Notes: generated by a model not told the origin, from the letters alone. A DNA stretch of 49,626 bases from an uncultured bacterium (GCA_964386525.1 CAYLSO010000008.1:1-49626), one strand, 5' to 3'; shown: positions 3,114 to 49,427, counted from the first letter of the stretch. Made by a program: numbers and translations.

Positions 3114-3136
3114 TTGTATGACGCCCGTCATATAAT
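3114..3136 (+). promoter_or_regulatory. Candidate promoter for the 3242 gene: perfect TATAAT overlapped by a palindrome
   Basis: TATAAT at 3131-3136 sits in an AT-rich island within about 70% GC DNA. The near-perfect palindrome TATGACG-CC-CGTCATA (3117-3132) overlaps it. There is no well-spaced -35: TTGTAT at 3114 is only 11 nt away. Confidence 0.35.
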
Positions 3137-3241: not shown

Positions 3242-3949
3242 ATGTATCGCAACGTTACTCGGATGGCCGCAATCGCCGGGGCGATCGTACTGCTCGGCCT
3301 CGCTGCCGCTTCCACGGCCGGAGCCTATTCCCTGCGCATCCCGCAGGTGACCATCGGAAGCTCGTCCGAAACCACCCTGCAGGCCTATCTCAACGGCGTC
3401 GGCGAGAGCATCACCGTCGCCACCGACCAGGCGGACGTGCAGGTGCTGACCACGGACGTCTCCGGGAACGTCCTGTTCACGCTGATGCTCGAGATCGCCG
3501 GCAACGCCAACGGCAACGCGATCGGCATCTACAACGCGGATCAGGCGATTCCCGCCACGTTCCCGGTCTTCCCCGGCAGCGCCGGGCCGGGCTACTTCGC
3601 CGTCGTTAGCTTCCAGTCGGGCGGCAACCTCGTGGTGAATCTCTTCAACAGCAGCGCCGGTCTCGTCAGCTCCAACTCCTACGGCGGCGTGAACGCCTCG
3701 GCCTTCGGCTTCTACCTCTCCGGCCCGGGCGGCACCTTCTACTCGGAGGACGGGCGCAACGCCGGCGGGGCCGCGCAGGCCCTCATGTTCGCGGGCACGG
3801 GAGTCAATTTCGGCCAGTGGTGGATGGCGTGGGAAGACCAGCAGGCCGGCGACCGCGACTTCAACGACGCGGTGCTCCTGCTCGAATCGGTGGCCCCGGT
3901 GCCGACGCAGACGAAGAGCTGGGGTGGTGTGAAGGCTTTGTACCGGTAA
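3242..3949 (+). CDS. Secreted DUF4114-domain protein with conserved ...SWGGVKALYR C-terminal tail
   Basis: GGGAG RBS at 3231-3235. Sec signal peptide (AGA/YS). DRDFNDAVLLL is the DUF4114 signature. The protein ends VAPVPTQTKSWGGVKALYR. Confidence 0.85.
   Translation: MYRNVTRMAAIAGAIVLLGLAAASTAGAYSLRIPQVTIGSSSETTLQAYLNGVGESITVATDQADVQVLTTDVSGNVLFTLMLEIAGNANGNAIGIYNADQAIPATFPVFPGSAGPGYFAVVSFQSGGNLVVNLFNSSAGLVSSNSYGGVNASAFGFYLSGPGGTFYSEDGRNAGGAAQALMFAGTGVNFGQWWMAWEDQQAGDRDFNDAVLLLESVAPVPTQTKSWGGVKALYR
3890..3946 (+). other. Coding segment for conserved C-terminal tag, copy 1 (VAPVPTQTKSWGGVKALYR-COOH)
   Basis: The last 19 codons share the pattern VPV..[ST][WL]G.[VL]K.[LT]YR with the C-termini of the genes ending at 5924 and 22410. 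Confidence 0.55.
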
Positions 3950-3974
3950 TCGCCGCAAGCTTCGCGACTCGGAG

Positions 3975-4011
3975 CCGGCGCTGGCGCGACCCGCCAGCGC
4001 CGGTTTGTCTT
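3975..4011 (+). terminator. Intrinsic terminator between convergent genes
   Basis: Perfect 12-bp stem CCGGCGCTGGCG / CGCCAGCGCCGG with a 5-nt loop (3975-4003), followed by TTTGTCTT. Confidence 0.75.
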
Positions 4012-4024
4012 CCCCCCCGGGGGC

Positions 4025-4780
4025 TTAGAACCGGACGCCGGCGCCGAAGGTCAAGCTGGTGCGGTCCAGCGAGTACTTGCTGCTCGGGAAGTAGACCTGG
4101 ATGTTGCCGATGCCGTTGCGCACGTCGTAGGGGCCGTAGCTCATCTCCCCGGCGTACCAGTACTGCGCCGCCGCCTCGGCGAAGAACCGCGAGCGCAGCG
4201 GCCAGGTGGCCGCGCCCTCCGCCAGGAAGCCGAACCGGGTGTCGGAGTTGCCCGGGAACTCGGTCCAGTCGTCGCGGGCCCGCACCTCGGCGCTGGTGAG
4301 CGCCGGCCCGAGACCGATCCGCACCACGGAACCCAGCGGCCGGTAGGCGATCAGCGCCGCGTAGCGCGTGGACGAGGCTTCGAGGGAGAGCTGCACGCGG
4401 TAGAGGACTTGCCGCACGCCGTAGGCGCTCACCTCCTCTTCGCCGCGTACGAGGCCGCGCACCTCCCATTCCGGAGCCAGGGCGTAGCCTAGGGCGACGC
4501 CGTACGCCCAGCGCCCGCCCTCGCTGACCGGGGTCGGGCGCGACTGGTCGCCGCCGCTGCCGTCCGCCAGCGGGAAGTAGTCGTCGGCCAGCGTGGCGGC
4601 ACGCAGCGCGCTCTCGAAATCCTGCCCCGGATTGCCCAGGTTGACGCTCCCGAAGAGGGTCAGGCTGACGCGCTGGTCTTCGGGCAGCGGCCCGGCGGCG
4701 CCGGCCGCTGCCGCGGGCAGACCCGCCAGCAGCGCCACCCCGGCACCCACGGCGATCCACCTCACACTGCGGGCACGCAT
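4025..4780 (-). CDS. Outer-membrane beta-barrel protein (OmpA-like / OmpW-like barrel family)
   Basis: AAGGAG RBS and a signal peptide (AAAGAAG). Alternating amphipathic strands rich in Y/G/A, with a C-terminal ...FGAGVRF ending in Phe (OMP beta-signal). Confidence 0.8.
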   Translation of the reverse strand: MRARSVRWIAVGAGVALLAGLPAAAAGAAGPLPEDQRVSLTLFGSVNLGNPGQDFESALRAATLADDYFPLADGSGGDQSRPTPVSEGGRWAYGVALGYALAPEWEVRGLVRGEEEVSAYGVRQVLYRVQLSLEASSTRYAALIAYRPLGSVVRIGLGPALTSAEVRARDDWTEFPGNSDTRFGFLAEGAATWPLRSRFFAEAAAQYWYAGEMSYGPYDVRNGIGNIQVYFPSSKYSLDRTSLTFGAGVRF

Positions 4781-5090
4781 GGGTTTGCCACTCCTTCCTC
4801 ACGGCTGGTGGTCGACACGGCGGCTACGAAAAGCGCGGCGCCGGGCAGTGCCGGTGCGCCGCGATCGCGAAGGCGGGGAGAACCAGTCATCGGACGTCCT
4901 CAGTGGGCGGCGCTGCGGAGCCGCCCCTGAGCCGTCCCGGTGTGGGCGGACGATAGCGCCGGTGCGGGCGCGACACAAGCGTCGGGTCGGCACCGTGTTG
5001 CGGCCGCGACGCCGGGGGCGCCTGCCGCCCGAGTTGCCTGACACCAAACTCGAGGATTTCGGCCAAGTCGGGCTCCGGGTCGATTCGCAG

Positions 5091-5119
5091 TTGTTGACGC
5101 CCCCCGGTCGGGCTAGAAT
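5091..5119 (+). promoter_or_regulatory. Candidate sigma70-type promoter of the 5172 gene
   Basis: TTGTTG (5091-5096), a 17-nt spacer, then TAGAAT (5114-5119), about 50 nt upstream of the AGGAGG RBS. Confidence 0.35.
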
Positions 5120-5171
5120 CCCATCGCTTACCGGGCCGCACTCTCCACCCATCTCCCAACAGGAGGTCACC

Positions 5172-5924
5172 ATGAGAAACGTTGCGACCATTGCTCTCAC
5201 GGCGGTCGTGGCATCCCTGGCCGTCGTCTCGCTCTGCTCCGTCGCCGGCGCCCAGGTGCCGTTGACGGGGTACGGCGTTCCGGCCGCCGAGAACTTCAAC
5301 ACGCTGGCTTCGACGGGCACCAGCTCGGTCGTGCCGACCGGTTGGGCGTTCCTGGAGACCGGTACCAACGCCAACGCCTTGTACTCGGCGGGCACCGGCA
5401 GCAACAACGCCGCGGATACCTACAGCTTCGGCGCGGCCCTGAGCGCGGAGCGCGCGTTCGGCGGGCTGCGCAGCGGCACTCTCGTCCCCACCATCGGCGC
5501 GTCGTTCGTGAACAGCATCGGCGGACCCATCGGCCGGCTCGACATCGAGTACGTCGGCGAGGAGTGGCGTCTCGGCACTCTCGGCCGCCTGGACAAGCTG
5601 GATTTCCAGTACAGCCTCAATGCCGTGAGCCTCAACACGGGCACCTGGACCGACGTGGACGCGCTGGACTTCATCGCGCCCGTGACGGGACCAACGATCG
5701 GCGCGTTGGACGGCAACGCCGCCGCCAACCGCACGCTGATCTCGGCGGCCATCTCGGGGCTATCGCTCGCACCGACCGCAGTGATCTGGATCCGCTGGAC
5801 GGACTTCGACGGGACCGGCGCCGACGACGGTCTCGGCGTGGACGATTTCCAGATCATCCCGCGCGAGCCGCCGGTGCCGGTGGTACCCGTCACGCTGGGC
5901 GCGGTGAAGGGCACGTATCGGTAG
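5172..5924 (+). CDS. Secreted hypothetical protein with conserved ...TLGAVKGTYR C-terminal tail
   Basis: ATG at 5172 with AGGAGG at 5161-5166. Signal peptide (VAGA/QV). The mature part is beta-rich (ENFNTLASTGTSS..PTGW...). It ends REPPVPVVPVTLGAVKGTYR. The upstream part of the tracked ORF (4593-5171) is R/P-rich and non-coding. Confidence 0.85.
   Translation: MRNVATIALTAVVASLAVVSLCSVAGAQVPLTGYGVPAAENFNTLASTGTSSVVPTGWAFLETGTNANALYSAGTGSNNAADTYSFGAALSAERAFGGLRSGTLVPTIGASFVNSIGGPIGRLDIEYVGEEWRLGTLGRLDKLDFQYSLNAVSLNTGTWTDVDALDFIAPVTGPTIGALDGNAAANRTLISAAISGLSLAPTAVIWIRWTDFDGTGADDGLGVDDFQIIPREPPVPVVPVTLGAVKGTYR
5868..5921 (+). other. Coding segment for conserved C-terminal tag, copy 2 (PPVPVVPVTLGAVKGTYR-COOH)
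   Basis: Same VPV...G.VK..YR-COOH pattern as copies 1 and 3. Confidence 0.5.
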
Positions 5925-6049: not shown

Positions 6050-7081
6050 CTAGGTCCGCACCGGCTTCGGTGTGTTCTCGTTCGACGGCGGCAGGATGGG
6101 GTGGGTCACCTGCGGCTGCTCGCCGGTGAGCGCCTTGAGGAAGGCCACGACCTTGGCCGTCTCCTCCGGCGTCAGGGTGGCGTTGAGCTGCAGCTCGGCC
6201 ATGAGCTGCACGGCCTCGGCGATGGTCCAGCGGCTGCCGTCGTGCAGGTACGGCGCCGTCAACTGGACGTTGCGCAGCGTCGGGACCTTGAAGACCATCC
6301 TGTCCTTGGGATCCTTGGTGACGTCGAAGCGGCCTTGCGGCGAGGCCTTGGTCACGAACGGCTTGTAGACGCCGAATTTCTGGAAGGAACCGTTGCCCAC
6401 GCCCGGGCCGTTGTGGCAACTCGTGCAGCCCTTGTCCTTGAAGAGCTTGTAGCCCTCCATCTCCTCGGCGGTCAGCGCCGTGTCATCGCCGTAGAGCCAC
6501 TTGTCGAAGCGCGAGTTCGGCGTCACCAGCGTGGACTCGAAGGCGGCGATGGCGTCCTGCACCTGGGCGATGGCGATGGTGTCGGTGCCGTAGACCCCCT
6601 TGAACAGCGCCACGTACTCCGGCATCGACTGCAGCACCTGGTCGGCCAGATCGTGCGTCGAGGCCATCTCGCCGGGGTTGGCGATCGGGCCGCCGGCCTG
6701 CTCGACGAGGTCCTTGGCGCGCCCGTCCCAGAACTGGGCGACGGCGTACTTGGCGTTGAGCACGGTGGGCGAATTGATCGGTCCGAGCTGCCACTTGTGG
6801 CCGATCGAGCTGGGCAGCCCGTCGCTGCCGCCGAGGCCGAGGTTGTGGCAGGAATTGCAGCTGATGAAGCCCGACTTCGACAGCCGCGGCTCGAAGAAGA
6901 GCATCCTGCCGAGGTCCACCTTGGCCGAGCTGGTCACCACCGCGGCCTCGATCGGGCCGATGGGCTCGTCGGCGTGGACCAGCTTCAGCTCCCCCTTGGC
7001 GGGGCCTTCCGCCTTCTGCTGCGGGGCGCAGCCGGCGACGACCAGCAGACAGCAGACGGCGAGCGCGGCCAGGATTCTCAT
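6050..7081 (-). CDS. ccp: Di-haem cytochrome c peroxidase (CCP/MauG family), probable lipoprotein
   Basis: Two CXXCH motifs (CNSCH, CTSCH), FKVPTLRNVQLTAPYLHDGS, and an N-terminal MRILAALAVCCLLVVAGC lipobox. ATG at 7081 with a GGAGGG RBS. The longer tracked ORF start (7207) lacks a signal peptide. Confidence 0.9.
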   Translation of the reverse strand: MRILAALAVCCLLVVAGCAPQQKAEGPAKGELKLVHADEPIGPIEAAVVTSSAKVDLGRMLFFEPRLSKSGFISCNSCHNLGLGGSDGLPSSIGHKWQLGPINSPTVLNAKYAVAQFWDGRAKDLVEQAGGPIANPGEMASTHDLADQVLQSMPEYVALFKGVYGTDTIAIAQVQDAIAAFESTLVTPNSRFDKWLYGDDTALTAEEMEGYKLFKDKGCTSCHNGPGVGNGSFQKFGVYKPFVTKASPQGRFDVTKDPKDRMVFKVPTLRNVQLTAPYLHDGSRWTIAEAVQLMAELQLNATLTPEETAKVVAFLKALTGEQPQVTHPILPPSNENTPKPVRT

Positions 7082-7261
7082 CGCTTCCCTCCTGTCGAGG
7101 CGGGTCCGGACCGTGAGCGGGGCGCGGCCGGACTCGCGGGCGGGTGTCGGACTCAATCGCGTGGCGCCGACGGCGCGCGGGGCCACGCCGGCGGCGGATG
7201 ACGGCATGGTGCCACGGGGGGCGGAAAAGGTGAAGCGGGGATTGGCCCGCCGCTCGCGGCC

Positions 7262-7435
7262 TCACCGCCCCAAGAGCCGGTTCACCCTCTCCACCGACAG
7301 GTGCGCCACCGCCTGCGGCTCGATCACCAGCCGCCGCAGGGCCACGCTGTCGCGCTGCGCTCCCGGCGTGGGCTCGATGCGGTACCCCCCGTGGCGCGCC
7401 AGGTACGTCCGCCGGAGCAGGGGAAGCGACAGCAA
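7262..7435 (-). CDS. Possible short ORF or gene remnant (57 aa, TTG start), unknown function
   Basis: Read by hand; it falls just under the shortest ORFs in the supplied track (60 aa). The frame gives ...LLSLPLLRRTYLARHGGYRIEPTPGAQRDSVALRRLVIEPQAVAHLSVERVNRLLGR*. Nearly every third codon position is G or C, as in the real genes here. There is no ATG or GTG and no clear RBS. Confidence 0.25.
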   Translation of the reverse strand: MLSLPLLRRTYLARHGGYRIEPTPGAQRDSVALRRLVIEPQAVAHLSVERVNRLLGR

Positions 7436-7582
7436 GCGGATGTGAAAGACGGTTCCGACGTCCCGGGAGGGCGTATCCGGGCCCGAACAGGGGTGTCTAG
7501 CGGTGTGGGCACGGGAGCCACGCCCCCCGTGCCCACGGAACGTCCGGCGCCGCCAGGCGCGGACGGTGAACCGCGAATCGTC

Positions 7583-10270
7583 CTAACCCTGCTTGACCAC
7601 CCGCTTCACCAGCGTCTGGCTGTCCACCTGCACGCGGATGAAGAACACGCCCACACCGGCGTCGCGCGAGCCTGAGTCGCGACCGTCCCAGGTGAGGCGG
7701 TGGGCGCCGCCGCCGAGCTCTCCGAGATCCTGCCCCGCGACGAGACGGCCACGCAGGTCGTAGACCTGCATCGTCACGCGCGCCGGGCGCGGCAGGTCGA
7801 GCTGTAGGCTGAGCTCGCCCTGGAAGGGATTGCTGAGCGGCCGCAGCGCCAGGGCCTTCGCCCCCACGCCGTCCGGCACGTCCACCAGCGTGTTGGCCAC
7901 GACGGCTTCCTCCATGAGCACCGGCGTCGAGCGGCCGTTGGCCGTCCACAGCGCGTAGAGTTCGTCCCCCTTGGTGTTGGTGGTGTTCTCGTCGCGTAGG
8001 AACTCGACATACTCCTTCGAGGTCGTCTGGTAGTAGAGCCGCGCCTCCACCTGGCGCGTGGCGGCCGGCAGCTCGTACGCGATCGCGTCCCAGTTCTGAT
8101 TGTCGGCGTAGCGCGGCACCGCGCCCTCGTGGTCCACCGGCTGGCCGCCGAACGCCGCGTACGCGGCATTGGTGAAGCCCAGCGGCGGGATGCGATTGTC
8201 CTTGTAGACGGTGTCGTTGAGCGCGAAGTGGAAGGTCGTCCCCGGGCCCTTGCCGATGGCCGCGGCCAGCGCCGGTGAGATCCCCAGGTGCGCATCGTAG
8301 ACGCGCGTGTCGTTGGCCAGGCTCAGCACGCCGGTGGCCGCGTCGTAGGCGCCCGACTCCCAGATGACGTTGCCGCCCCCATCGCGGGCGACGACGTTGA
8401 CCCACATGCGCCGCCCCTCGGGGTAGCCGGTCGGCAGCTTGTGCCCCGAGCGGTTGGTCAGCGTGACGTGGGCGACGAAGTGGTCGGCGACCCACTCGGT
8501 GGTGAGGTCGAGCACCGCGGCTTTGCGTAGGATGGTGATCGCCCGGGTCTTGGCGTCCGAGAGCGCCAGCGCGCTGGTCTCGCCCGGATAGAGAGCGCCG
8601 ATGAGCGGCGGCATCCAGGCGTTGCCCCCCGTCATGTCGTGGTAAGGCAGGTCGGCGCGGGTCGGCGCCGCCGGGTCGTTGCACCCCTTCCCGGAGACGT
8701 CGGACATGTGGCAGTCCTGGCAGATGGCGACCACGCCGCCGGGCTTGTTGCCGGCGAACTCCGGCGCATAGACGCCGGCCGGGAAGGCGCTGTGCAGCCA
8801 CTCGCTGTAGGTGCGCTCGAGCGGCAGCAACACTTCGGGATCGAACGAGGCGGCCGCCTGGTCGAGCGGGCCGGGCGCGTAGTCGGCGCCCGCCACGCGG
8901 TTGAACGCCGGATTCGAGACGTTGTGGCAGGTGCCGCAGAACTCGCTCGAGCGGTGGAACGCCGACTGCAGGAACGGATGCGGCGCCACCGCGTCGGCGA
9001 ACGGCCCGCGCTTGCGCGGGTCGGGATCGACGACGAACTGGCCCGTGGTGTAGTGCCCCGGGGTGTGGCCCGGCAGCAGGTTGGCGAGCACCGCCTGGTC
9101 CACGAGCGGGCTCACCCCCGGCTTGTAGATGGGATCGACCGCACGGTGGCAGAAGTCGCAGGCCACGCCGTCGCGGTCGAGAGCCGTGAGCTGGCTGCCG
9201 TCGGTGGGCGTGCTGCGGCCGGAGAGCCAGCCGCCGGGCGTATGGCAGCGGATGCAGAGGTCGCCGGACGACGGCGCGTCCTGCTCGGCGACGGCCACGC
9301 AGGCGAAGAAGAGCGGGTCGCGCGCCGCCTGCCCCATCATGCTGCCCAGCCAGCCGTGGCCGGGCTCGGCCGCCGTGTTGTAGCCACCGTGGCAGGTGAT
9401 GCAGGAGGCGGCCTCCTGGAACTGACCGCCGCCCAGGGGCTGCGTGCCCGGCTGCTTGAAGTCGCGCAACGTCGTGGCCACCACGCCGCCCGGCGTCTGC
9501 TGGATGGTGAAGTTGGCGTTGCTCGAGTCGGCCCTGCTGTTGCCCGCCGCGTCGCGCGCCAGGACCTTCACCCGCGCCTGCAGCGTCGGCGTGTTCTGCA
9601 CGAACCACTGGAAGGTGCCGGTGTTGGCCACGCTGAGCGCCAGCGGCTCCCACGAGTGGTCCGCGGCGTCGCGGTAGAAGATGTCCACGTTGGCCACACC
9701 GACGTTGTCGGTGGCGGTCCAGGCGATCTGGTGCCCCGTGCCGCCGACCCACGACTCGCCGCCGTTGGGCGTGGTCACCGTCACCGTGGGCGCCTGCGTG
9801 TCGCTGCCGGTGGTCGGCACCAGGTAGTTCGTGATCTCGTTGACGTTGGGGATGTTGGAGCAGCTGCCGACGTTGCCCGGCGTGAGCCCCGGGAAGGTCG
9901 GGGTGTTGGTGTAGGTGGCGGTGTTGGTGACCTCGGTCAGCGTGCTGAAGCCGTCGCTGTCGGAGTCCTCGTTCTGGATGGCGGTGATGGCGGCCTCGGT
10001 GTTCGGATAGCTGTTGAGGACCGCGGCGACCCGGTTGCCGTAGGGGTTCTTGGGCCCCCCGCCGTTGAAGTCGAAGTGGCAGACGCCGCAGTGCGTGGCG
10101 TGGCTCGGCAGGTTGTCGAGCTTGCTGCCCACCGCGCTCGGATAGACGGTGAAGAAGGACCGGCGGATCGTGGGCCGCGCGAAGGCGGTGACCACCGAGC
10201 CGAAGCAGGCGATCGCGGCCAGGGCGAGGCCGATCCGGAGGGGCGACCAGCAGGTAGTGGACCGATTCAT
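7583..10270 (-). CDS. Secreted six-haem c-type cytochrome with Ig-like module and T9SS-type (Por/FlgD-Ig-like) C-terminal sorting domain
   Basis: Signal peptide present. Six CXXCH motifs: CGVCH, CITCH, CIRCH, CDFCH, CGTCH, CQDCH. Asp-rich DSDSDG motif and a PNGGESW...beta-sandwich module. The last roughly 80 aa (NPFQGELSLQLDLPRPARVTMQVYDLRGRLV...FFIRVQV...) resemble a type A T9SS C-terminal domain. Confidence 0.85.
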   Translation of the reverse strand: MNRSTTCWSPLRIGLALAAIACFGSVVTAFARPTIRRSFFTVYPSAVGSKLDNLPSHATHCGVCHFDFNGGGPKNPYGNRVAAVLNSYPNTEAAITAIQNEDSDSDGFSTLTEVTNTATYTNTPTFPGLTPGNVGSCSNIPNVNEITNYLVPTTGSDTQAPTVTVTTPNGGESWVGGTGHQIAWTATDNVGVANVDIFYRDAADHSWEPLALSVANTGTFQWFVQNTPTLQARVKVLARDAAGNSRADSSNANFTIQQTPGGVVATTLRDFKQPGTQPLGGGQFQEAASCITCHGGYNTAAEPGHGWLGSMMGQAARDPLFFACVAVAEQDAPSSGDLCIRCHTPGGWLSGRSTPTDGSQLTALDRDGVACDFCHRAVDPIYKPGVSPLVDQAVLANLLPGHTPGHYTTGQFVVDPDPRKRGPFADAVAPHPFLQSAFHRSSEFCGTCHNVSNPAFNRVAGADYAPGPLDQAAASFDPEVLLPLERTYSEWLHSAFPAGVYAPEFAGNKPGGVVAICQDCHMSDVSGKGCNDPAAPTRADLPYHDMTGGNAWMPPLIGALYPGETSALALSDAKTRAITILRKAAVLDLTTEWVADHFVAHVTLTNRSGHKLPTGYPEGRRMWVNVVARDGGGNVIWESGAYDAATGVLSLANDTRVYDAHLGISPALAAAIGKGPGTTFHFALNDTVYKDNRIPPLGFTNAAYAAFGGQPVDHEGAVPRYADNQNWDAIAYELPAATRQVEARLYYQTTSKEYVEFLRDENTTNTKGDELYALWTANGRSTPVLMEEAVVANTLVDVPDGVGAKALALRPLSNPFQGELSLQLDLPRPARVTMQVYDLRGRLVAGQDLGELGGGAHRLTWDGRDSGSRDAGVGVFFIRVQVDSQTLVKRVVKQG

Positions 10271-21658: not shown

Positions 21659-21686
21659 TTGCATCGTCGGTAGCGGGTGCTAGACT
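21659..21686 (+). promoter_or_regulatory. Candidate sigma70-type promoter of the 21760 gene
   Basis: TTGCAT (21659-21664), a 16-nt spacer, then TAGACT (21681-21686), about 70 nt upstream of the ATG. Confidence 0.4.
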
Positions 21687-21759: not shown

Positions 21760-22410
21760 ATGAGAAGACTGGCTACTGCGTTTCTGGTGCTGGCCGGACT
21801 GGCTGTCGCGTCCATCGCGTTGGCGGTGGACTTCGACCAGAAGACCGTCATGCCCGAAGGCATCACCCCCAACTTCACGCTGGCTCAGGTGCTCGCCTGC
21901 GACAACGGCACCGCGAACAACGCCTACTTCCAGGCTGACGTCGCCCGCTACGGCAACCTCTTCAACCTGGGCAGCAGCGCGCGTCTGAGCCACCTCGAGT
22001 TCGCCCACTACGGCTTCGGATTCTCGGGGCCGTACAACTACGACATCGAGCTGTGGGATCCGACGAGCTGCACCGTGATCGCGACCGTGGACGGGCTCGT
22101 CGCTCAGGACGCGGCCGACTTCTTCGTGGTGGAGTCGGTGGATCTCTGTCCGCGGCAATTGGTCGCTTCGGGCAACGTGATCGTCGCGATCGACGCGAAC
22201 AGCTGCGCCGTCCCCTCCGACTGCTACCCTGACGTCCTCTTCGACACCCAGATCAACGTCCTCTGCCCGTTCATCGTGGATGCGGCAGGCGGCGTTTGCA
22301 TCGATGTCAGCGATCAGTCCGGGCCATTCTTGCTCCGGCTCGAGATCGACAACTGCGCCGTCCCCGTGAAGCCGGGCACGTGGGGCGCCCTGAAGCAGCT
22401 CTACCGCTAA
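21760..22410 (+). CDS. Secreted Cys-rich hypothetical protein with conserved ...TWGALKQLYR C-terminal tail
   Basis: ATG at 21760 with AAAGGAG upstream. Signal peptide (IALA/VD). Nine Cys in the mature part. It ends CAVPVKPGTWGALKQLYR. Confidence 0.8.
   Translation: MRRLATAFLVLAGLAVASIALAVDFDQKTVMPEGITPNFTLAQVLACDNGTANNAYFQADVARYGNLFNLGSSARLSHLEFAHYGFGFSGPYNYDIELWDPTSCTVIATVDGLVAQDAADFFVVESVDLCPRQLVASGNVIVAIDANSCAVPSDCYPDVLFDTQINVLCPFIVDAAGGVCIDVSDQSGPFLLRLEIDNCAVPVKPGTWGALKQLYR
22357..22407 (+). other. Coding segment for conserved C-terminal tag, copy 3 (AVPVKPGTWGALKQLYR-COOH)
   Basis: Same VPV..[ST]WG..K.LYR-COOH pattern as copies 1 and 2. Confidence 0.55.
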
Positions 22411-22460: not shown

Positions 22461-24410
22461 GTGACGCGCCGCGACCTCCCTCGCTCGCGTTTGGGGACCC
22501 GGCGCGGGTTCGCCACGGGCCTGGCGCTGCTGGTGGCCGGGGCGGCGGCGCTCGCGCCCGGGACCGCATCTTCGGCGGCCGCGGCCCCCCGCCCCGAGCG
22601 CCTCCTCCTGATCTCGATCGACGGCCTGGGCGAGGAGCGGGTCGACGCCGCCCGCATGCCGGCGCTCGCCGCGCTGCTCGAGCGCGGCGCGCGTTGCGAG
22701 AGCGCCCGATCGCCCTCGGGCCGCACCTTCCCCGCGCTCACCGCTCTGCTCTCCGGCCGCTCACCGGCCTCGACGGGGGTGAGCACCGAGGGCGCAGTCG
22801 GCTTTCCTCCTGCGGGCGCGGCCCTCGCTGCCGCACTCGGCGCCCTGGGCTACCGGGGGCTCGCGCTTCCGGCCGACCCGTTCGCGCATTCGGGAAGCGG
22901 GATCGGCCGAGGCTTCGCCCGCTTCGTGGCGGAGTCCCCCGCCCTGTCCGACAGCGCCCGGGCGGACACGGCCCTGGCATGGCTGGCGCGTCCCGGCCGG
23001 CACTTCGTCTGGCTCGGGCTCTCCTTCGGCGAAGCCGAGACCGCCTGGCGCCGTGAGGACGGTCCCGCGTTCGCCGACGCCCGCGCCCGCGAGGCTCGGG
23101 CGAGAGACCTCGACGACGCGATCGCCCGGTTGGCGGTGGGCCTCGAGCGCGCCGGGCTCGCCCCCGGCACCCTGCTCGCCGTGGCGGGCACCCACGCACT
23201 GCCGGGGGATGCCGACCCGCGCCGCGTGCCCATCGCGTTCATCCGGCTCGACGGGCCGGGCGGGGATCCGATCCCCGGCGACGCCAGCCTCGTGGACGTG
23301 GCGCCATCGCTCGTCCGGGCCGCCGGCGGGAAGCCCGCGGGCTTCGACGGCCGCGCGCTCCTTGGCGCGCCGGGCGCGGCGCCGGCCGGCTCGGCCGAGA
23401 CACCCGCTGAGAGTCCGTCGCCGTGCCGGGGCGAGCTGCGGTCCGTGATCGGCGACGGCAAGGCGGCCCCCGACAGCGCCGCTCTCGAGCGCCTGCGGGG
23501 GCTGGCCGAGCGCTGCCCCGAGGACCGGCGCGTGGCGATCGAGGAGGCCGACGGGCTCTCCCGCGCGGGCCGCGAGGCCGATGCGGCCCGCCGCTTCCTG
23601 GCGGTTCGCGAACGCTGGCCGGAGGACCCCGCGAGCGCGCTGGCCTACGCGCAGCACCTGGTGCGCCACCAGCGGTTCGAGATGGTGGGTGCCACGCTGG
23701 CGGCGATCCCGCGCACCAGCCCGTTCGCGGCCGAGGCCGCCTGGCTCGAGGTGATCGCGCTCGCCGGCGAGCTGCGCTTCACCGCCGCCTCCGCGGCGGC
23801 GCGCCGCGCGGCCGCGCTCGCCGTGCCCCGTGGGTCGTTCGCCGAGGCGCCGGCCACGCTCGACCGGCTGCACGCGGCCCAGAGCGTGGCCGAGGCGCAA
23901 CCGGACGATTTCGCGGCGCAGATGGCGTTCGGCCGCCAGCTGGGCGAGTTCGGGCTCACCGAGGAAGCTTACCGCCACCTGCACCGCGCGCGGCTCGCCG
24001 ACTCGACGAGCGCCGAGCCCGACTTCTGGATCGCCACCTTCCTGCTGCGCCAGGGGCGTCTCAAGCCTGCCGCCCAGACCTTCGAGCGTGGGCTCGTGAC
24101 CGACCCGGGCCATCGCGCCTCGCGCGTCGCCCTTGCCGAGGTGCTGATCCGGCTCGACCGCTGGCGGGAAGCGATCCCGCAGCTCGAGCGCGCCGTGGCC
24201 GAGGATCCGGGCGACGCGCGCTCCGGCTACAACCTGGCGTGCCTGCTCGCCAGGGATGGCCGTTCCGAGGAGGCGCTGCGCGCGTTGCGGCGCGCGCTGG
24301 ACGCGGGCTACGGCGACTGGGATCGGCTGGCGGAAGACGCGGATCTGGCCCCGCTCCGGGACCGTCCCGAGTTCCGGGCGCTGCTGGCCCGGCGCCCCGG
24401 GGGGCCCTGA
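22461..24410 (+). CDS. Alkaline-phosphatase-superfamily (phosphodiesterase/pyrophosphatase-like) domain fused to C-terminal TPR repeats, exported
   Basis: GTG at 22461 after GAGGGAGG. N-terminal signal/TAT-like region. LLLISIDGLG...PSGRTFPALTALLSGRSP matches the metal/nucleophile (Thr) motif of the ENPP/AP fold. The C-terminal roughly 300 aa are TPR-like helices. Confidence 0.7.
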   Translation: MTRRDLPRSRLGTRRGFATGLALLVAGAAALAPGTASSAAAAPRPERLLLISIDGLGEERVDAARMPALAALLERGARCESARSPSGRTFPALTALLSGRSPASTGVSTEGAVGFPPAGAALAAALGALGYRGLALPADPFAHSGSGIGRGFARFVAESPALSDSARADTALAWLARPGRHFVWLGLSFGEAETAWRREDGPAFADARAREARARDLDDAIARLAVGLERAGLAPGTLLAVAGTHALPGDADPRRVPIAFIRLDGPGGDPIPGDASLVDVAPSLVRAAGGKPAGFDGRALLGAPGAAPAGSAETPAESPSPCRGELRSVIGDGKAAPDSAALERLRGLAERCPEDRRVAIEEADGLSRAGREADAARRFLAVRERWPEDPASALAYAQHLVRHQRFEMVGATLAAIPRTSPFAAEAAWLEVIALAGELRFTAASAAARRAAALAVPRGSFAEAPATLDRLHAAQSVAEAQPDDFAAQMAFGRQLGEFGLTEEAYRHLHRARLADSTSAEPDFWIATFLLRQGRLKPAAQTFERGLVTDPGHRASRVALAEVLIRLDRWREAIPQLERAVAEDPGDARSGYNLACLLARDGRSEEALRALRRALDAGYGDWDRLAEDADLAPLRDRPEFRALLARRPGGP

Positions 24411-33281: not shown

Positions 33282-34925
33282 CTAGCGCCGGCCGGTGGTC
33301 GCGGTCTCGTCGAGCGGCGGTTTCCCCGCCTTGCCGGGCAGCGTGCCGGCGCTCGAAAGCAGCTTGGAAGCCTCGGGGAACAGCTCCAGCGCCCGTTGCA
33401 GCTGCTTGTCGCCGGTGATGTCCACGCGGTAGCGCGCGTCGAGACCGAAGAGATTGCCCCCGATCTCCGCCTTGAGCCGCCGCGAGACGTACTCCCGCTC
33501 GTTCTGCCAGTCGTCGTCGCCGAACCGCGCCGAATCGGCCTCCAGCTCCTGGCGCAGCTGCGCGAGGGCCGTCTCGTCCGGCTGGTAGCTCTTGAGGAAA
33601 TCCTCGAAGCGGGCGTACCGGCCCTGGAGCGGCGGCGCCAGTCGCGTGGCCGTCTCGAAGAGCGCTCCGGCCTGCTCGATCTGCGCCTGGCGCTGGCTGA
33701 CGCGCTGGCTGGGCACGACCACGTCGGGCGTGATGCCGCCGCCGCCGTACACCGTTCGCCCGCCGGGCGTGGTGAATTTGGGCCGCGCGGCGAGCACGCT
33801 CTCGGGCGCGGCGTCCTCCTTCCAGGCGTCGATCTGATAGGACTCGCGATCGGAGTAGTCGCGCTGGATGAGCCGTCCGCTCGGCGTGTAGTACTTGGCC
33901 ACGGTGAGCAGCAGCGCCGAGCCGTCCGACAACTGCATCTGGTTCTGGACGAGCCCCTTGCCGAACGACGTGGTGCCCACGACCAGGCCGCGGTCGAGGT
34001 CCTGCACCGCGCCGGCGAAGATCTCCGAGGCCGACGCCGAGCCGTGGTCGATGAGCACCACGAGCGGCAGGTCGGTGTACTTGGCGTTCTTGTTGTCGGT
34101 GTAGTAATCGGCGCTCGCCGAGCGCAGGCGACCGCGCGTGTACACGATGCGCTGCCCCGCCGGCAGGACCAGGTCACTCACCTCCACCGCCTGGTGGAGC
34201 AGCCCTCCGGAGTTGAAGCGCAGGTCGACGAGCAGCTGCTTCATGCCCTGCGCCTTGAGCTTCTCCAGGGCGCGGTCGAGCTCCAGGCCGGTGGCCGACG
34301 CGAAGCGGATGACGCGCACGTAGCCCACCCCCGGCCGGATCATGTGCGCGTAGCGCACGCTCTCCTGCGGGATGCGGGCCCGCACCAGATCGAAGGCGAT
34401 GAGCTCCGGCTGGGCGCCGCGCCGCACGTCGACCTTGACGGTCGAGCCCTCGGGTCCGCGCAAGAGCCGGAAGACCTCCTCGTTGTTGATGGTCGGCGGC
34501 ACCGGCTTGCCGTCCACCTTGACGATGCGGTCGCCGGCCCGCATGCCCATGCGGAAGGCCGGCGTGCCCTCGAGCGGCGAGATGACGATGAGCTCGCCGC
34601 GGCGCACCTCGAACTGGATACCGATGCCCGAGTAGTTCTCGCGGAACTGCTCGGTGAAGCGGGCGTAGCGCTCCTTGGGCAGGTAGACGCTGTGCGGGTC
34701 GAGGGTCTCGAGCAGGCCGGTGATGGCGCCCCGCACGAGGTCCTGGTTGTCCACCGTTTCGACGTACTGCGTCTGGATCTCGTAGAGCACGACGCCGAAG
34801 AGATCGAGCTGGGCGCGCAGGTCGTCCTGGGCGCCGAGCAGGCGGGCCGCGCCGAAGCCGACGCCGAGAGCCAGGGCCAGCGCGTAGGCGGCGCGCCGGG
34901 CGCGGCCGGGCCGGGCGGGGCTCAC
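33282..34925 (-). CDS. ctp: S41 C-terminal processing peptidase (Ctp/Prc-like) with PDZ domain and about 150-aa C-terminal extension
   Basis: GIGIQF, a PDZ domain (PAFRMGMRAGDRIVKVDG), DLRFNSGGLL, GSASASEIFAGAVQD and GGGGITPDV. GTG start at 34925. Confidence 0.9.
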   Translation of the reverse strand: MSPARPGRARRAAYALALALGVGFGAARLLGAQDDLRAQLDLFGVVLYEIQTQYVETVDNQDLVRGAITGLLETLDPHSVYLPKERYARFTEQFRENYSGIGIQFEVRRGELIVISPLEGTPAFRMGMRAGDRIVKVDGKPVPPTINNEEVFRLLRGPEGSTVKVDVRRGAQPELIAFDLVRARIPQESVRYAHMIRPGVGYVRVIRFASATGLELDRALEKLKAQGMKQLLVDLRFNSGGLLHQAVEVSDLVLPAGQRIVYTRGRLRSASADYYTDNKNAKYTDLPLVVLIDHGSASASEIFAGAVQDLDRGLVVGTTSFGKGLVQNQMQLSDGSALLLTVAKYYTPSGRLIQRDYSDRESYQIDAWKEDAAPESVLAARPKFTTPGGRTVYGGGGITPDVVVPSQRVSQRQAQIEQAGALFETATRLAPPLQGRYARFEDFLKSYQPDETALAQLRQELEADSARFGDDDWQNEREYVSRRLKAEIGGNLFGLDARYRVDITGDKQLQRALELFPEASKLLSSAGTLPGKAGKPPLDETATTGRR

Positions 34926-37994: not shown

Positions 37995-38570
37995 ATGCAC
38001 AGACCCGGTCCTGGGGCAGTCATGGCGGACGCAGAACCGGAAACGGTGGCGCGGAAACCGGACGAGAGCGACGCCTCGCTGGCCGCCGGCGGCGATGCCC
38101 GCGCCTTCGAGCGCCTCTACCGGTCGCATGTGGCGCGCGTGCACGGGCTGGCGCGACGCATGGCCGGCGACGAACTGGCCGACGAGCTGACGCAGGAGAC
38201 CTTCGTGCGCGCCTGGCAGAAGCTGTGGAGCTTCCGCGGCGAGTCGGCGTTCGGCACCTGGCTCCACCGGGTGGCGGTGAACGTGATCCTGGCGCGGCGC
38301 GCCTCCCAGGCGGGCGAGCGTTCGCGACGGGTGGACGGGATGGAGATCCTGGAGATGGCCGCGGCCCGGCCGGCTGCACCCGACCTGGCGATGGACTTCG
38401 AGGCGGCCATCCGGCGCCTGCCCGACGGGGCGCGTCAGATCTTCGTCCTGCACGATGTCGAGGGCTACAAGCACGAGGAGATCGCCAGGCTTCTCGGTAT
38501 CGCCTCGGGCACGTCGAAGGCCCAGCTGCACCGCGCGCGGATGCTGCTGCGCGGGCATCTCGGCAAGTGA
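37995..38570 (+). CDS. ECF-type RNA polymerase sigma factor (sigma-70 regions 2 and 4)
   Basis: FERLYRSHVARVHGLARRM...ELTQETFVRAW (region 2). RQIFVLHDVEGYKHEEIARLLGIASGTSKAQLHRAR (region 4 HTH). Start is ATG at 37995 or 38022. Confidence 0.9.
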   Translation: MHRPGPGAVMADAEPETVARKPDESDASLAAGGDARAFERLYRSHVARVHGLARRMAGDELADELTQETFVRAWQKLWSFRGESAFGTWLHRVAVNVILARRASQAGERSRRVDGMEILEMAAARPAAPDLAMDFEAAIRRLPDGARQIFVLHDVEGYKHEEIARLLGIASGTSKAQLHRARMLLRGHLGK

Positions 38571-39328: not shown

Positions 39329-40249
39329 ATGCCTCTGAATCTCGCGATCATGGTCCTGGCGGCGGCTGCCGCGGCCTTCCCCACCGACACCACGCTGGCG
39401 GTGGGCCCGGAGACCCGCCTGCAGCTACACAACCTGCTCGGCGACATCGACATCCAGACCTGGAGCCGAGACGCCGTGCGCATCCGCGCGGCGCACTCGC
39501 CGCGCGAACGCATCGTGATCGAGCGCCGCGGCCCGGTGCTGGTGGTGGACGCGCGCCCGCGCTCGGGTCCCCCGGGCGAGGTGGACTTCCGGCTCGTCGT
39601 GCCGCGCGGCATGCCGGTGAGCCTCGACGGCGTGCGCACCTCCGCCAAGGTCCGCGACCTCGACGGCGACGTCTCCATCCAGACGATCAACGGCGAGATC
39701 GCGGTCCTGGGCGGCGACGGCAACGTCCTGCTCAGCACCATCCAGGGGCTCATCTCGGTGGTCGGGACGCGCGGCCGCCTGGAGGTCAACTCGGTGGACG
39801 GCGAGATCCGCCTCCTGGAGATCGCCGGACACATCTTCGCCGAAACGGTCAACGGCGCCGTGGCGCTGCGGCGCGTCGTCTCGGACAGCGTCGAGGTCAG
39901 CACGGTCAACGGCGACCTGTGCTACGACGGCGCCATCGCCGGGGCCGGCCGCTATCGCTTCCGCACGCACAACGGAGACATCGCCGTGGGCCTGCCCGAG
40001 CAGACCGGGGCGACGGTCACCTTGGCCACCTACCGCGGGGAGATCGATTCCGACTTCCCGCTGCGCGTGGGCGAGAAAGGCGAGCACAACCGGTTCAAGC
40101 TGCGGCTCGGAGACGGCCGGGCGCACCTCGATCTCGAATCGTTCGGCGGCGCCATCCGCTTGCGCCGCCCGGGCGCCGACAGCACGGCCGCCTGGCTGCC
40201 TTGTCGGCTCCCCGAAGGGAAGGACAAGAAAGAGGAGGGCAAGAGATGA
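39329..40249 (+). CDS. DUF4097-family (putative adhesin/beta-helix, LiaG/YvlB-like) protein
   Basis: GGGAG RBS. Repeated [ST]-[VI]-[ND]-G-[DE]-[IL] strands (IQTINGEIAV, VNSVDGEIRL, ETVNGAVAL, STVNGDLC, RTHNGDIAV). Confidence 0.8.
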   Translation: MPLNLAIMVLAAAAAAFPTDTTLAVGPETRLQLHNLLGDIDIQTWSRDAVRIRAAHSPRERIVIERRGPVLVVDARPRSGPPGEVDFRLVVPRGMPVSLDGVRTSAKVRDLDGDVSIQTINGEIAVLGGDGNVLLSTIQGLISVVGTRGRLEVNSVDGEIRLLEIAGHIFAETVNGAVALRRVVSDSVEVSTVNGDLCYDGAIAGAGRYRFRTHNGDIAVGLPEQTGATVTLATYRGEIDSDFPLRVGEKGEHNRFKLRLGDGRAHLDLESFGGAIRLRRPGADSTAAWLPCRLPEGKDKKEEGKR

Positions 40250-48242: not shown

Positions 48243-49427
48243 TCAGCGCTCGCTGGCGAGGCCCACGTGGACGTCCCCTGAAGCGGTGTGGACCGCGATC
48301 GTGGCCGACCCGGGGCCGAGCACCCCGACCAGCCGGCGGCGATTGGCCTGCTCCAGCGTCATGGGGACGCGGGCCACGATGTCCCCGCTGGCCGTCACGA
48401 TCTCCAGGCGACCCTGCGCCGGGTCCGGCAGGCCCAGGATCACATCCCCGCTGGTCGTTTCCACCGAGACGCTCAGCAGCGGAGCCTCGATCCGGGCGTC
48501 CACATCGCCGCTGGCGGTGGCGACCCCGAGGCGGCCGGCCGTGGCCGACAGCGACACGTCGCCCGAAGTGGTCGAGACGGCCGCCGCCCCCCGCACCCGC
48601 TCCGCCGAGATGTCGCCACTGACCGAGGACACGGTCAGGGTCCCGCCCACTTCCTCGGCCGCCAGGTCGCCGCTGGTGGACTCGTAGCTCAGCGCCCCGG
48701 TCACCAGGTCGGCGCTCAGGTCGCCGCTCGTGGTATCCATCTCGAGGGAGCCGTCCAGGCGTTCCACCGACAGGTCGCCGCTGGTCGAGTGCATGACCAA
48801 CTTGCCGGTGTGGGCGTCCACCCGACCGTCGCCGGACGTGGTCCAGAATTCGAGCGGTCCGGTCGAGCCTTCGAGCGTCAGGGCGCCGTTCTTGGTGACC
48901 ACCTTGGTCGGGACGTCCCGGGGCACCGCGATCTGCAGGTCCACGTCGGCCCGCCGGCGCAACACCTCCCGTCCCAACACCCGGACTCTGACGCTCGACG
49001 AGGAGATCCGCTCCGGGTAGTGGACCACCAGCCGCAGGTCGGTCCCCTCGCGGACCACCTCCACGCGGACCTCGCGGGCCAGGGCCCGCGCCTCTTCCTG
49101 GTCGCCCGCCGCGGTCTGCTTGCGCGCCTCGACCCGCACCACGGTCGTATCGCTGGTCCGCAGCCGGACGGTGCCGCGCGCGTTCTCGATGACGAGGCGC
49201 GTCTGAGGCGCCAGGGGCAAGGTCACCTGGCTCGTCTCTTCGTAGCGCGCATCTCGGCGGTCTCGATTGCAGCCACCGGCCGCCGTGGCGGCCAGCGCCG
49301 CCGCCAGCAACGCCAGCGCGAGCTTGCCCCCGCCGCCGCCGGTGGATCGCGGGTTCGCGCCCCGGCTGCCGGGGGGCGGTCCGTACCCGGGCCCCGGTTC
49401 GGGCCTCATGCGGATGGTCTTGTCCAT
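48243..49427 (-). CDS. DUF4097-family lipoprotein, third copy
   Basis: Lipobox AAGGC. At least eight repeats of T[ST]SGD[LVI]S (TTSGDLSA, STSGDLAA, SVSGDISA, TTSGDVSL, TASGDVDA, TTSGDVIL, TASGDIVA, TASGDVHV). There is a 21-nt gap to the downstream 47022 gene. Confidence 0.8.
   Translation of the reverse strand: MDKTIRMRPEPGPGYGPPPGSRGANPRSTGGGGGKLALALLAAALAATAAGGCNRDRRDARYEETSQVTLPLAPQTRLVIENARGTVRLRTSDTTVVRVEARKQTAAGDQEEARALAREVRVEVVREGTDLRLVVHYPERISSSSVRVRVLGREVLRRRADVDLQIAVPRDVPTKVVTKNGALTLEGSTGPLEFWTTSGDGRVDAHTGKLVMHSTSGDLSVERLDGSLEMDTTSGDLSADLVTGALSYESTSGDLAAEEVGGTLTVSSVSGDISAERVRGAAAVSTTSGDVSLSATAGRLGVATASGDVDARIEAPLLSVSVETTSGDVILGLPDPAQGRLEIVTASGDIVARVPMTLEQANRRRLVGVLGPGSATIAVHTASGDVHVGLASER

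Follow-up and report, generated by a model that had tools for sequence, protein, structure and literature searches.

The window discussed here is a stretch of 49,626 nucleotides (72.7% G+C) from an uncultured bacterium (GCA_964386525.1 CAYLSO010000008.1:1-49626), and our subject is a short tail with which three of its proteins end. The three genes, referred to below as P1, P3 and P4, all lie on the plus strand and encode unrelated beta-sandwich proteins with signal peptides; all three tails read [ST]-[WL]-G-x-[VL]-K-x-[LT]-Y-R, followed directly by the stop codon. We are close to certain that this tail is a real, modular and conserved C-terminal tag on exported proteins. The tagged genes and their tags are laid out as follows, the N-termini having been recognised by eye as resembling Sec signal peptides.

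3242-3949, plus strand: tagged gene P1, 235 amino acids (aa); signal peptide at about residues 1-28 (nt 3242-3325), beta-sandwich, Pro-rich spacer and tag; C-terminus ...VAPVPTQTKSWGGVKALYR, then stop
3893-3946, plus strand: P1 tag, last 18 aa APVPTQTKSWGGVKALYR; residues 227-234 (WGGVKALY) predicted to form a detached helix
5172-5924, plus strand: tagged gene P3, 250 aa; signal peptide at about residues 1-27, beta-rich domain; C-terminus ...PPVPVVPVTLGAVKGTYR, then stop
5868-5921, plus strand: P3 tag, the last 18 aa just given; divergent, L replacing W and T replacing L
21760-22410, plus strand: tagged gene P4, 216 aa; signal peptide at about residues 1-22, Cys-rich jelly-roll lectin-like beta-sandwich, spacer and tag; C-terminus ...AVPVKPGTWGALKQLYR, then stop
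22354-22407, plus strand: P4 tag, last 18 aa CAVPVKPGTWGALKQLYR, at the end of the open reading frame (ORF); helix in the AlphaFold2 model

A first-pass annotation of the window had reported these three ORFs and their tails, and we found both at the positions it gave. The core of the consensus it proposed precedes the stop in three copies out of three, but the "VPV" that it placed in front is merely a loose spacer rich in Pro, Val and Thr. The six-frame translation of the window (99,248 residues) contains exactly three matches to the regular expression G.[VLIM]K..[YF][RK], all of them directly before a stop; 0.042 motif matches and 0.0005 motif-plus-stop matches would be expected from six-frame composition, and the probability of three or more is ~2e-11. 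Any two window copies share 60% DNA identity over their last 10 codons, with 40-50% at third positions, so the conservation lies in the protein and not in a DNA repeat. After removal of the signal peptide and the tail, the bodies of P1, P3 and P4 show no significant pairwise similarity (best BLASTP E = 0.011-0.13 over 26-30 residues). Thus, as the first-pass annotation had claimed, otherwise unrelated signal-peptide proteins carry a common tail, and they do so without being recognisable paralogues.

The tail is also kept by orthologues. Among the 120 listed homologues of P1, 117, down to 47% identity, end in [ST]-[WLF]-G-x-[LIV]-K-x-x-[YF]-[RKHN], and the distance from the Lys to the end is four residues in 97 of the 120, five in 16 and three in seven. 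The ending C-x-x-P-x-x-x-x-[ST]-W-G-x-[VLI]-K-x-x-Y-R is shared by all 34 homologues of P4, the lowest identity among them being 44%. Over a set of 141 tails, conservation extends to positions that were not forced by any search pattern: Ser or Thr precedes the Trp, at -10, in 126 of them, and there are further preferences for Ile, Val or Leu before the Lys, for Ala, Ser or Gly after it, for a spacer rich in Pro, Val and Thr, and for Glu, Arg or Lys at -13; a Cys stands at -18 in 27. The terminal residue is Arg in most tails, and although the genome scan described below forced a CGN codon there, the unforced homologues of P1 and P4 agree. Overall, the tag comprises about 16-18 residues: a Pro/Val/Thr-rich spacer, often following the last Cys of the folded domain, and then the core [ST]-W-G-x-[IVL]-K-x-[L]-[YF]-[RK], which sits at the C-terminus give or take one residue. 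The tail of P3 is among the weakest scorers against the tail profile (19 bits); Leu or Phe in the position of the Trp is also found in P1 homologues.

The bodies in front of the tag differ. A DUF4114 domain had been assigned to P1, and the match to PF13448 is indeed seen at residues 156-213 (E = 1.6e-4), but it is weak and stays below the Pfam cut-off (23.0 bits, gathering score 27); several P1 homologues carry a precomputed PF13448 match. The AlphaFold2 model of P1, built with 95 homologues as the alignment, is a confident beta-sandwich with a mean predicted local distance difference test (pLDDT) score of 89, whose top Foldseek matches are LecB lectins (probability 1.0, target-normalised TM-score ~0.5). 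No family match was obtained for P4. The alignment of its family (34 homologues) has nine invariant or nearly invariant Cys residues, and its model (pLDDT 79) resembles lectin-like, CBM and PHR domains in Foldseek, all of these matches being weak (E >= 1.6e-3). P3 matches nothing in Pfam or NCBIfam, and its body has 4424 homologues among cluster representatives, most of which carry it as the N-terminal module of large multidomain secreted proteins.

The models of P1 and P4 are alike in having a confident core, a low-confidence Pro-rich spacer and then an eight-residue helix that spans exactly the motif from W to Y. In P1, this predicted helix covers residues 227-234 at pLDDT 58-61, beside the confident core; in P4, it covers residues 208-215 at pLDDT 51-57. 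Such a separation of the terminal helix from the core in both models argues that the tail is not part of the fold. A search of the tail profile against the PDB gave one chance match (E = 1.1) and nothing similar among solved structures.

Distribution and carriers of the tag

One genome per GTDB species was scanned with a degenerate DNA pattern encoding W-G-x-h-K-x-L-Y-R(CGN)-stop, which yielded at least 119 loci, and metagenomes were scanned with an AGR-codon version of the pattern, which yielded at least 127 matches. Both patterns are codon-restricted, and the distribution that follows is therefore a lower bound. The named sources among the listed genome matches are Candidatus Eisenbacteria (about 30), Krumholzibacteriota, Latescibacterota, Gemmatimonadota, Zixibacteria and metagenome-assembled genomes (MAGs) labelled Fibrobacteraceae, alongside many unclassified MAGs. 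Matches from Isosphaeraceae, Planctomycetales, Elusimicrobia, Mucilaginibacter and Humidesulfovibrio were judged chance-like, and mis-binning probably accounts for the tagged ORFs on 2-kb contigs that bear the labels Polyangiaceae, Verrucomicrobiia and Limnocylindria. No convincing Bacteroidota match is present among the genome-scan matches listed, the one Mucilaginibacter locus being without a tagged ORF; since the scan is codon-biased, this is weak evidence.

In metagenomes, 96 of the 127 listed matches are [ST]WG tails that stand at the end of ORFs with 100 aa or more. The tag is abundant in soil, sediment and wastewater metagenomes, and the contigs that bear it span 35% to 75% G+C, so that it is not confined to GC-rich lineages. 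Its C-terminal position holds across genomes as well: of 22 motif occurrences in the 119 listed genome loci that had not been selected by the scan, 17 abut the stop and four end one residue further, which places 21 within one residue of a stop codon. The sole internal occurrence (locus L107) reads ...STWGRVKASYR then RCPDVR..., where a frameshift or read-through variant is possible, as is a genuine internal copy.

The proteins that carry the tag are diverse. At least 261 tagged ORFs fall, after removal of the tail, into 121 clusters, 86 of which are singletons, and the median length of 113 complete tagged proteins is 231 aa. Pfam finds in them Lamin-tail domains (LTD), NHL, CHRD, beta-helix, PD40 and other propellers, DUF7450, MAM-like and CBM domains; NCBIfam adds DNRLRE, choice-of-anchor W and J, ScyF-like (a PEP-CTERM family) and ExeM-like proteins, M36 peptidases of kinds that depend on rhombosortase or myxosortase, and a nuclease family dependent on type IX secretion (T9SS). 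Many carriers belong to families, among them choice-of-anchor, LTD, ScyF-like and M36, whose members in other organisms terminate in PEP-CTERM, IPTL-CTERM or T9SS domains. Judging from sequence, the tag appears to be appended to more than 100 unrelated exported families in Eisenbacteria, and to occur also in allied lineages of the Fibrobacterota-Chlorobiota-Bacteroidota (FCB) superphylum. To judge from its 72.7% G+C and from the lineages in which the tag occurs, the window itself probably comes from Eisenbacteria.

Association with export signals is strong: a signal-peptide-like N-terminus was called in 96 of 120 tagged ORFs versus 87 of 358 untagged ORFs from the same loci (Fisher 2e-27). These calls come from a fixed rule that takes the first start preceded by a Shine-Dalgarno sequence, a simple heuristic and not SignalP; a rival rule, taking the best of all possible starts, was dropped with 63% positives in controls. 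Lipoboxes occur in about a tenth of the tagged proteins.

Tagged genes often stand in tandem, with six in locus L059, four in L050 and three in L121. The array of L059 (1649-6325, plus strand) includes at least four ORFs with lipoprotein-type leaders (...LGALVSGCGDDD...) and has ends such as ...ESKSWGEIKGLYR; a possible seventh gene at 6199-6972 ends in ...PGTWGQIKLLFSP, a variant with two extra residues. In L121, a 1.7-Mb contig, the three tagged genes (6846-7556, 8001-8696 and 8892-9650, plus strand) consist of a P1 orthologue between two others (236 and 252 aa), and a sensor kinase and sigma-54 activator pair lies immediately downstream.

The tag was also met on IMG/VR contigs classed as viral (L129, L131, L126, L133, L134, L135 and L138). 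One of them, L129, is a genuine phage fragment with genes for a tail protein, DNA polymerase A, primase and dCMP deaminase; on L133, the gene next to that of a phage tail protein encodes a tagged protein whose leader resembles those of lipoproteins. It may be that phages infecting these bacteria make use of their hosts' tag.

Comparison with known C-terminal signals

Homologues of the P3 body indicate what kind of position the tag occupies. Many of the 150 best of the 4424 representatives end in other C-terminal signals, several of them above curated NCBIfam cut-offs: a PEP-CTERM domain in P0243 (248 aa), whose layout of signal peptide, domain and tail is that of P3, IPTL-CTERM in P0189, P0247 and P0127, and T9SS type A domains in P0136 and P0190. 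Tails are thus swapped on homologous bodies, and the tag sits in the position of a sorting signal, as the first-pass annotation had supposed. In one MAG, two adjacent LTD genes (L065:4077-6290 and 6392-6982, plus strand) differ in the same respect, the larger ending in a T9SS/FlgD_ig domain and the smaller in the tag.

The tag itself answers to none of the models for such signals. NCBIfam gave no match to the three window proteins at E <= 0.1, no sorting-domain model (TIGR02595, TIGR04174 and the like) on 113 tagged proteins at E <= 0.01 and, for eight tails taken by themselves, no match at E <= 10; in Pfam, neither the window proteins nor the other tagged proteins have a family match that extends over the tail, and there is no PF18962, TIGR04183 or PF13860 match on the tagged proteins. 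As a positive control, the same NCBIfam scan does find sorting models of 24-27 residues (PEP_CTERM and IPTL_CTERM), and also Por_Secre_tail, in P3 homologues. The highest 15-residue Kyte-Doolittle mean within the last 30 residues is 1.48 over 133 tails (median 0.49), against maxima of 1.7-2.8 in the PEP-CTERM and IPTL-CTERM controls among P3 homologues. Only four or five residues remain after the invariant Lys, which leaves no membrane-spanning segment, and the extreme C-terminus consists of a single Arg, Lys, His or Asn, occasionally of two basic residues and sometimes of none (...SLY), but never of an Arg cluster. The earlier statement that the tail lacks a transmembrane helix and is not a PEP-CTERM, LPXTG, GlyGly-CTERM or T9SS domain is therefore borne out by low hydropathy and by the absence of any model match.

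Tripartite sorting signals consist of a signature motif, a transmembrane helix and then an Arg cluster (bioRxiv 10.1101/2023.06.07.544157). Like them (PEP-CTERM/exosortase, IPTL-CTERM, GlyGly-CTERM/rhombosortase, MYXO-CTERM/myxosortase and LPXTG/sortase), the tag is short, modular and strictly C-terminal, stands on many unrelated Sec-exported families, occurs in several copies per genome within a lineage-restricted range, and fills the same slot on homologous domains of the "choice-of-anchor" type. Unlike them, it has no hydrophobic segment, one basic residue in place of the Arg cluster and no match to a hidden Markov model (HMM). The hydropathy maximum of 1.48, the missing Arg cluster and the lack of an HMM match rule it out as a tripartite signal. 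WGxxGxxG-CTERM (NF038039) is a broadly distributed orphan C-terminal domain that starts with W-G and resembles tripartite signals (10.1101/2023.06.07.544157). The tag likewise begins with W-G at the protein end, and for neither has a sorting enzyme been identified; however, NF038039 gave no match to the isolated tails even at E <= 10. The beta-signal of the beta-barrel assembly machinery (BAM), a terminal aromatic residue closing a barrel, differs from the tag, which ends in Arg or Lys and is carried by soluble beta-sandwiches. A description of the tag was not found in the searchable literature.

The tag as a candidate sorting signal, and its alternatives

We put the probability at roughly 60% that the tail serves exported proteins as a modular C-terminal tag for sorting or retention, with a function like that of PEP-CTERM-type and T9SS signals but a different construction. 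In such a scenario, carriers would cross the inner membrane by Sec export, about a tenth of them being also lipidated at an N-terminal Cys, and the beta-sandwich body would fold in the periplasm. The flexible spacer would then present the terminal helix of 8-10 residues as an address label, to be read by a shared envelope component encoded elsewhere in the genome. This component would set the final location, most likely retention at, or delivery to, the outer membrane or the cell surface. The tag would play the role that PEP-CTERM, IPTL-CTERM and T9SS domains play on homologous domains in other organisms.

Several observations weigh against this interpretation. The position at which the tag ends varies by one residue in either direction, which argues against recognition of an exact C-terminal carboxylate, though not against a tag as such. 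The tail helix is moderately amphipathic, with a hydrophobic moment of 0.39-0.56 that is not above shuffles, and AlphaFold2 confidence in the tail is low. The tagged metallophosphoesterase encoded by phages (L129:7893-8663, plus strand; L131:4347-5144, minus strand) apparently has no signal peptide, and a purely post-Sec role does not explain it. A stricter clustering of neighbours over 246 loci (1.6 Mb) returned no recurrent untagged family except PD40 proteins (11 loci) and ABC ATPases (8 loci), both of which are common families. Finally, all carriers are uncultured. It should be added that weak amphipathicity and the one-residue shift of the end fit the recognition of a W-G-x-h-K-x-L-Y core by a protein better than they fit insertion into lipid or clamping of the carboxylate.

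As to the reader of the tag, Pfam scans of about 34 window genes revealed no sortase-like, rhomboid-like, exosortase, rhombosortase, CPBP-type or T9SS machinery gene. With no partner family near the tags, a dedicated partner, if it exists, would have its gene at another place in the genome, like signal peptidases, BAM and T9SS. And since both a membrane anchor and the T9SS fold are missing from the tag, such a partner would likely work differently from the known systems. More tentatively, the tag may be the address label of an undescribed pathway for sorting or surface attachment, with its own recognition or processing machinery distinct from the tripartite systems and T9SS. Its range would be restricted to Eisenbacteria, Krumholzibacteriota, Latescibacterota, Fibrobacterota, Gemmatimonadota and their relatives, and, the tag being present on bona fide phage contigs, phages would also exploit it.

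Repeatedly, short sorting signals at the C-terminus have pointed the way to new envelope machinery, namely sortases, exosortases, archaeosortases, rhombosortases, myxosortases and T9SS. The present tag is sharply conserved over at least six mostly uncultured phyla and has no counterpart in Pfam, NCBIfam or the PDB, nor a description in the searchable literature. With a simple profile of it, a large block of "hypothetical proteins" could be assigned to the envelope or the surface, and phylogenetic profiling would gain a clean handle for finding the partner.

Among the alternatives, we first consider an envelope tether, in which the tail would bind peptidoglycan or outer-membrane lipid, or be joined to either covalently through its invariant Lys, with no dedicated sorting machine. 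Two familiar proteins supply the model. Braun's lipoprotein Lpp has a C-terminus ...K-Y-R-K that is linked to peptidoglycan by L,D-transpeptidases, and the C-terminal anchor of PBP5 is a clearly amphipathic helix of about 18 residues that is poorly conserved in sequence. Like Lpp, the tag is a basic, Tyr-containing extreme C-terminus with an invariant Lys near its end, carried by exported proteins; its terminal Y-R, sometimes Y-R-K or Y-R-R, recalls the YRK of Lpp, and the tenth or so of carriers that are lipoproteins would, as in Lpp, be held at both ends. Like the anchors of PBP5 and PBP6, it follows a Sec-exported soluble domain as a terminal helix able to lie on a membrane surface, and Trp or Tyr beside Lys or Arg is typical of interfacial helices. 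The lack of a partner gene nearby would also suit a tether. On the other hand, most tails end in Arg and not in Lys, most carriers are not lipoproteins (about a tenth have a lipobox), and W-G-x-[IVL] has no counterpart in Lpp. Unlike the anchor of PBP5, the tag helix is highly conserved and only weakly amphipathic, and its 8-10 residues are very few for a membrane anchor. That Trp, Gly and Lys are nearly invariant in six phyla suggests recognition by a protein more than binding to lipid, and the carrier domains are of an extracellular type. A tether thus looks unlikely, and the amphipathic-helix anchor, whose hydrophobic moment does not exceed that of shuffles, was set aside except as a minor form of it.

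Most of the remaining alternatives concern genes that lie near the tags, and four features of the window have to be introduced here.

4025-4780, minus strand: gene resembling an outer-membrane beta-barrel, 251 aa, ending ...GAGVRF (Pfam OMP_b-brl, E = 5.5e-5, 23.8 against a gathering score of 28.7)
7583-10270, minus strand: T9SS cargo gene, 895 aa, with Big_7 and T9SS type A/FlgD_ig domains (...GVFFIRVQVDSQTLVKRVVKQG; Pfam FlgD_ig at residues 818-881, E = 3.4e-8)
22461-24410, plus strand: gene of the alkaline-phosphatase superfamily with TPR (Pfam Phosphodiest, Sulfatase and TPR), with a GTG start and a twin-arginine-like leader, TRRGFA
33282-34925, minus strand: S41 peptidase with PDZ, a C-terminal processing protease (Pfam)

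The tail might, secondly, be a minimal accessory signal that gives small proteins which lack a full C-terminal domain access to parts of T9SS, such as a PorV-like shuttle. Like the T9SS type A domain (Por_Secre_tail/FlgD_ig-like), the tag is C-terminal, free of transmembrane segments and placed on Sec-exported proteins of the FCB superphylum. Among the matches listed, it is found only in lineages of this superphylum whose loci also encode T9SS type A domains: canonical domains of this type are present in 35 of the 119 listed loci, often 34-110 bp from the tagged gene, and in the window at 7583-10270. They also link the one large untagged cluster (35 loci) that emerged when the neighbours in the 119 loci were clustered, and are the only thing that does so. 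In addition, tagged proteins are small (the median of 231 aa given above), whereas T9SS cargo is large. Judging from this canonical cargo, these genomes use T9SS. However, T9SS cargo may simply be common there, in which case adjacency shows no functional link to the tag. The two signals also differ in build, the T9SS domain being a beta-sandwich of 60-100 residues with motifs B, D and E and the tag having about 18 residues with a predicted helix of eight. An hhalign comparison of the tail profile with 30 T9SS domains of the same loci gave a probability of 0.15%, and this value, together with the shortness of the tail and its predicted helix, rules out a truncated T9SS domain. Against an accessory signal stand the same hhalign value, the fact that no Por_Secre_tail or FlgD_ig match covers the tail, and, weakly in view of the codon-biased scan, the missing Bacteroidota matches; moreover, even the "short" T9SS C-terminal domains described in Prevotella still have ~60 aa and retain motifs B, D and E (PMC11969387). 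Overall, we regard this explanation as rather improbable.

It is quite improbable, thirdly, that the tail is a degron or processing tag through which a periplasmic PDZ protease, of the S41 Ctp/Prc or DegP type, controls stability or maturation. Its strictly C-terminal position would suit such a role, and an S41 gene is found both in the window (33282-34925) and in L121 (13653-14885, minus strand), there 5 kb from the three tagged genes. But S41 proteases are near-universal housekeeping genes that are not enriched near tags, and their proximity is probably coincidental. Besides, one would not expect to see a degron in the place that PEP-CTERM or T9SS anchors take on homologous domains, and PDZ domains usually require the terminal residue to be fixed, whereas the tag can stop one residue earlier or later.

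The first-pass annotation had offered the barrel at 4025-4780 as the receptor or anchor of the tag. That the gene encodes an outer-membrane beta-barrel finds partial support in the OMP_b-brl match, which is seen but falls below the Pfam gathering score. It lies between two tagged genes in the window, and the same arrangement recurs in L001, a contig of the same organism. Nonetheless, it has no homologue in the 119 other tag-bearing loci listed, the P1 orthologues of L121, L122 and L124 sit among different genes, with no outer-membrane barrel gene beside them, and the third tagged gene of the window is 17 kb away; moreover, a barrel of a single lineage cannot serve a tag spread over six phyla. 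The bracketing of the barrel by tagged genes is a local arrangement, and its service as the partner of the tag is very improbable. Lastly, the idea that the tail has no function of its own, being either a chance similarity or the last element of a common fold in hidden paralogues, is hardly credible: P1, P3 and P4 do have in common a beta-sandwich build and weak matches to lectin-like folds, but the probability of ~2e-11 speaks against chance, and the spread of bodies over 121 clusters and many Pfam families, beta-propellers and beta-helices among them, speaks against paralogy, as does a tail set off by a low-confidence Pro-rich spacer and predicted to be helical in all-beta proteins.

Other features of the window

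The gene at 22461-24410 forms a conserved pair with P4. A TPR gene of ~610-650 aa is found 23-80 bp downstream of P4-family genes and holds the same position in L139, L140 and L141, while homologues of 22461-24410 adjoin tagged genes in L075 and L026. The pairing may be specific to the P4 family rather than to the tag.

P1, P3 and P4 each start with ATG and have a Shine-Dalgarno-like GGAG upstream. A GC-rich hairpin with a T-run lies 3' of P1, as read from the sequence, and another lies 3' of P3, as called by a scan. Of the -10-like boxes that had been proposed for the three genes, TATAAT at 3131-3136, accompanied by a -35-like TAGACT, is the sole promoter-like site called by the scan; TAGAAT at 5114 and TAGACT at 21681 are present but were not called. 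These boxes are ordinary promoter candidates and are uninformative about the tag.

Further along the window, an ECF-type (extracytoplasmic function) sigma factor is encoded at 37995-38570, and DUF4097 ("toastrack") proteins are encoded at 39329-40249 and 48243-49427. With no evident link to the tag, these genes may make up a sigma/anti-sigma-like module.

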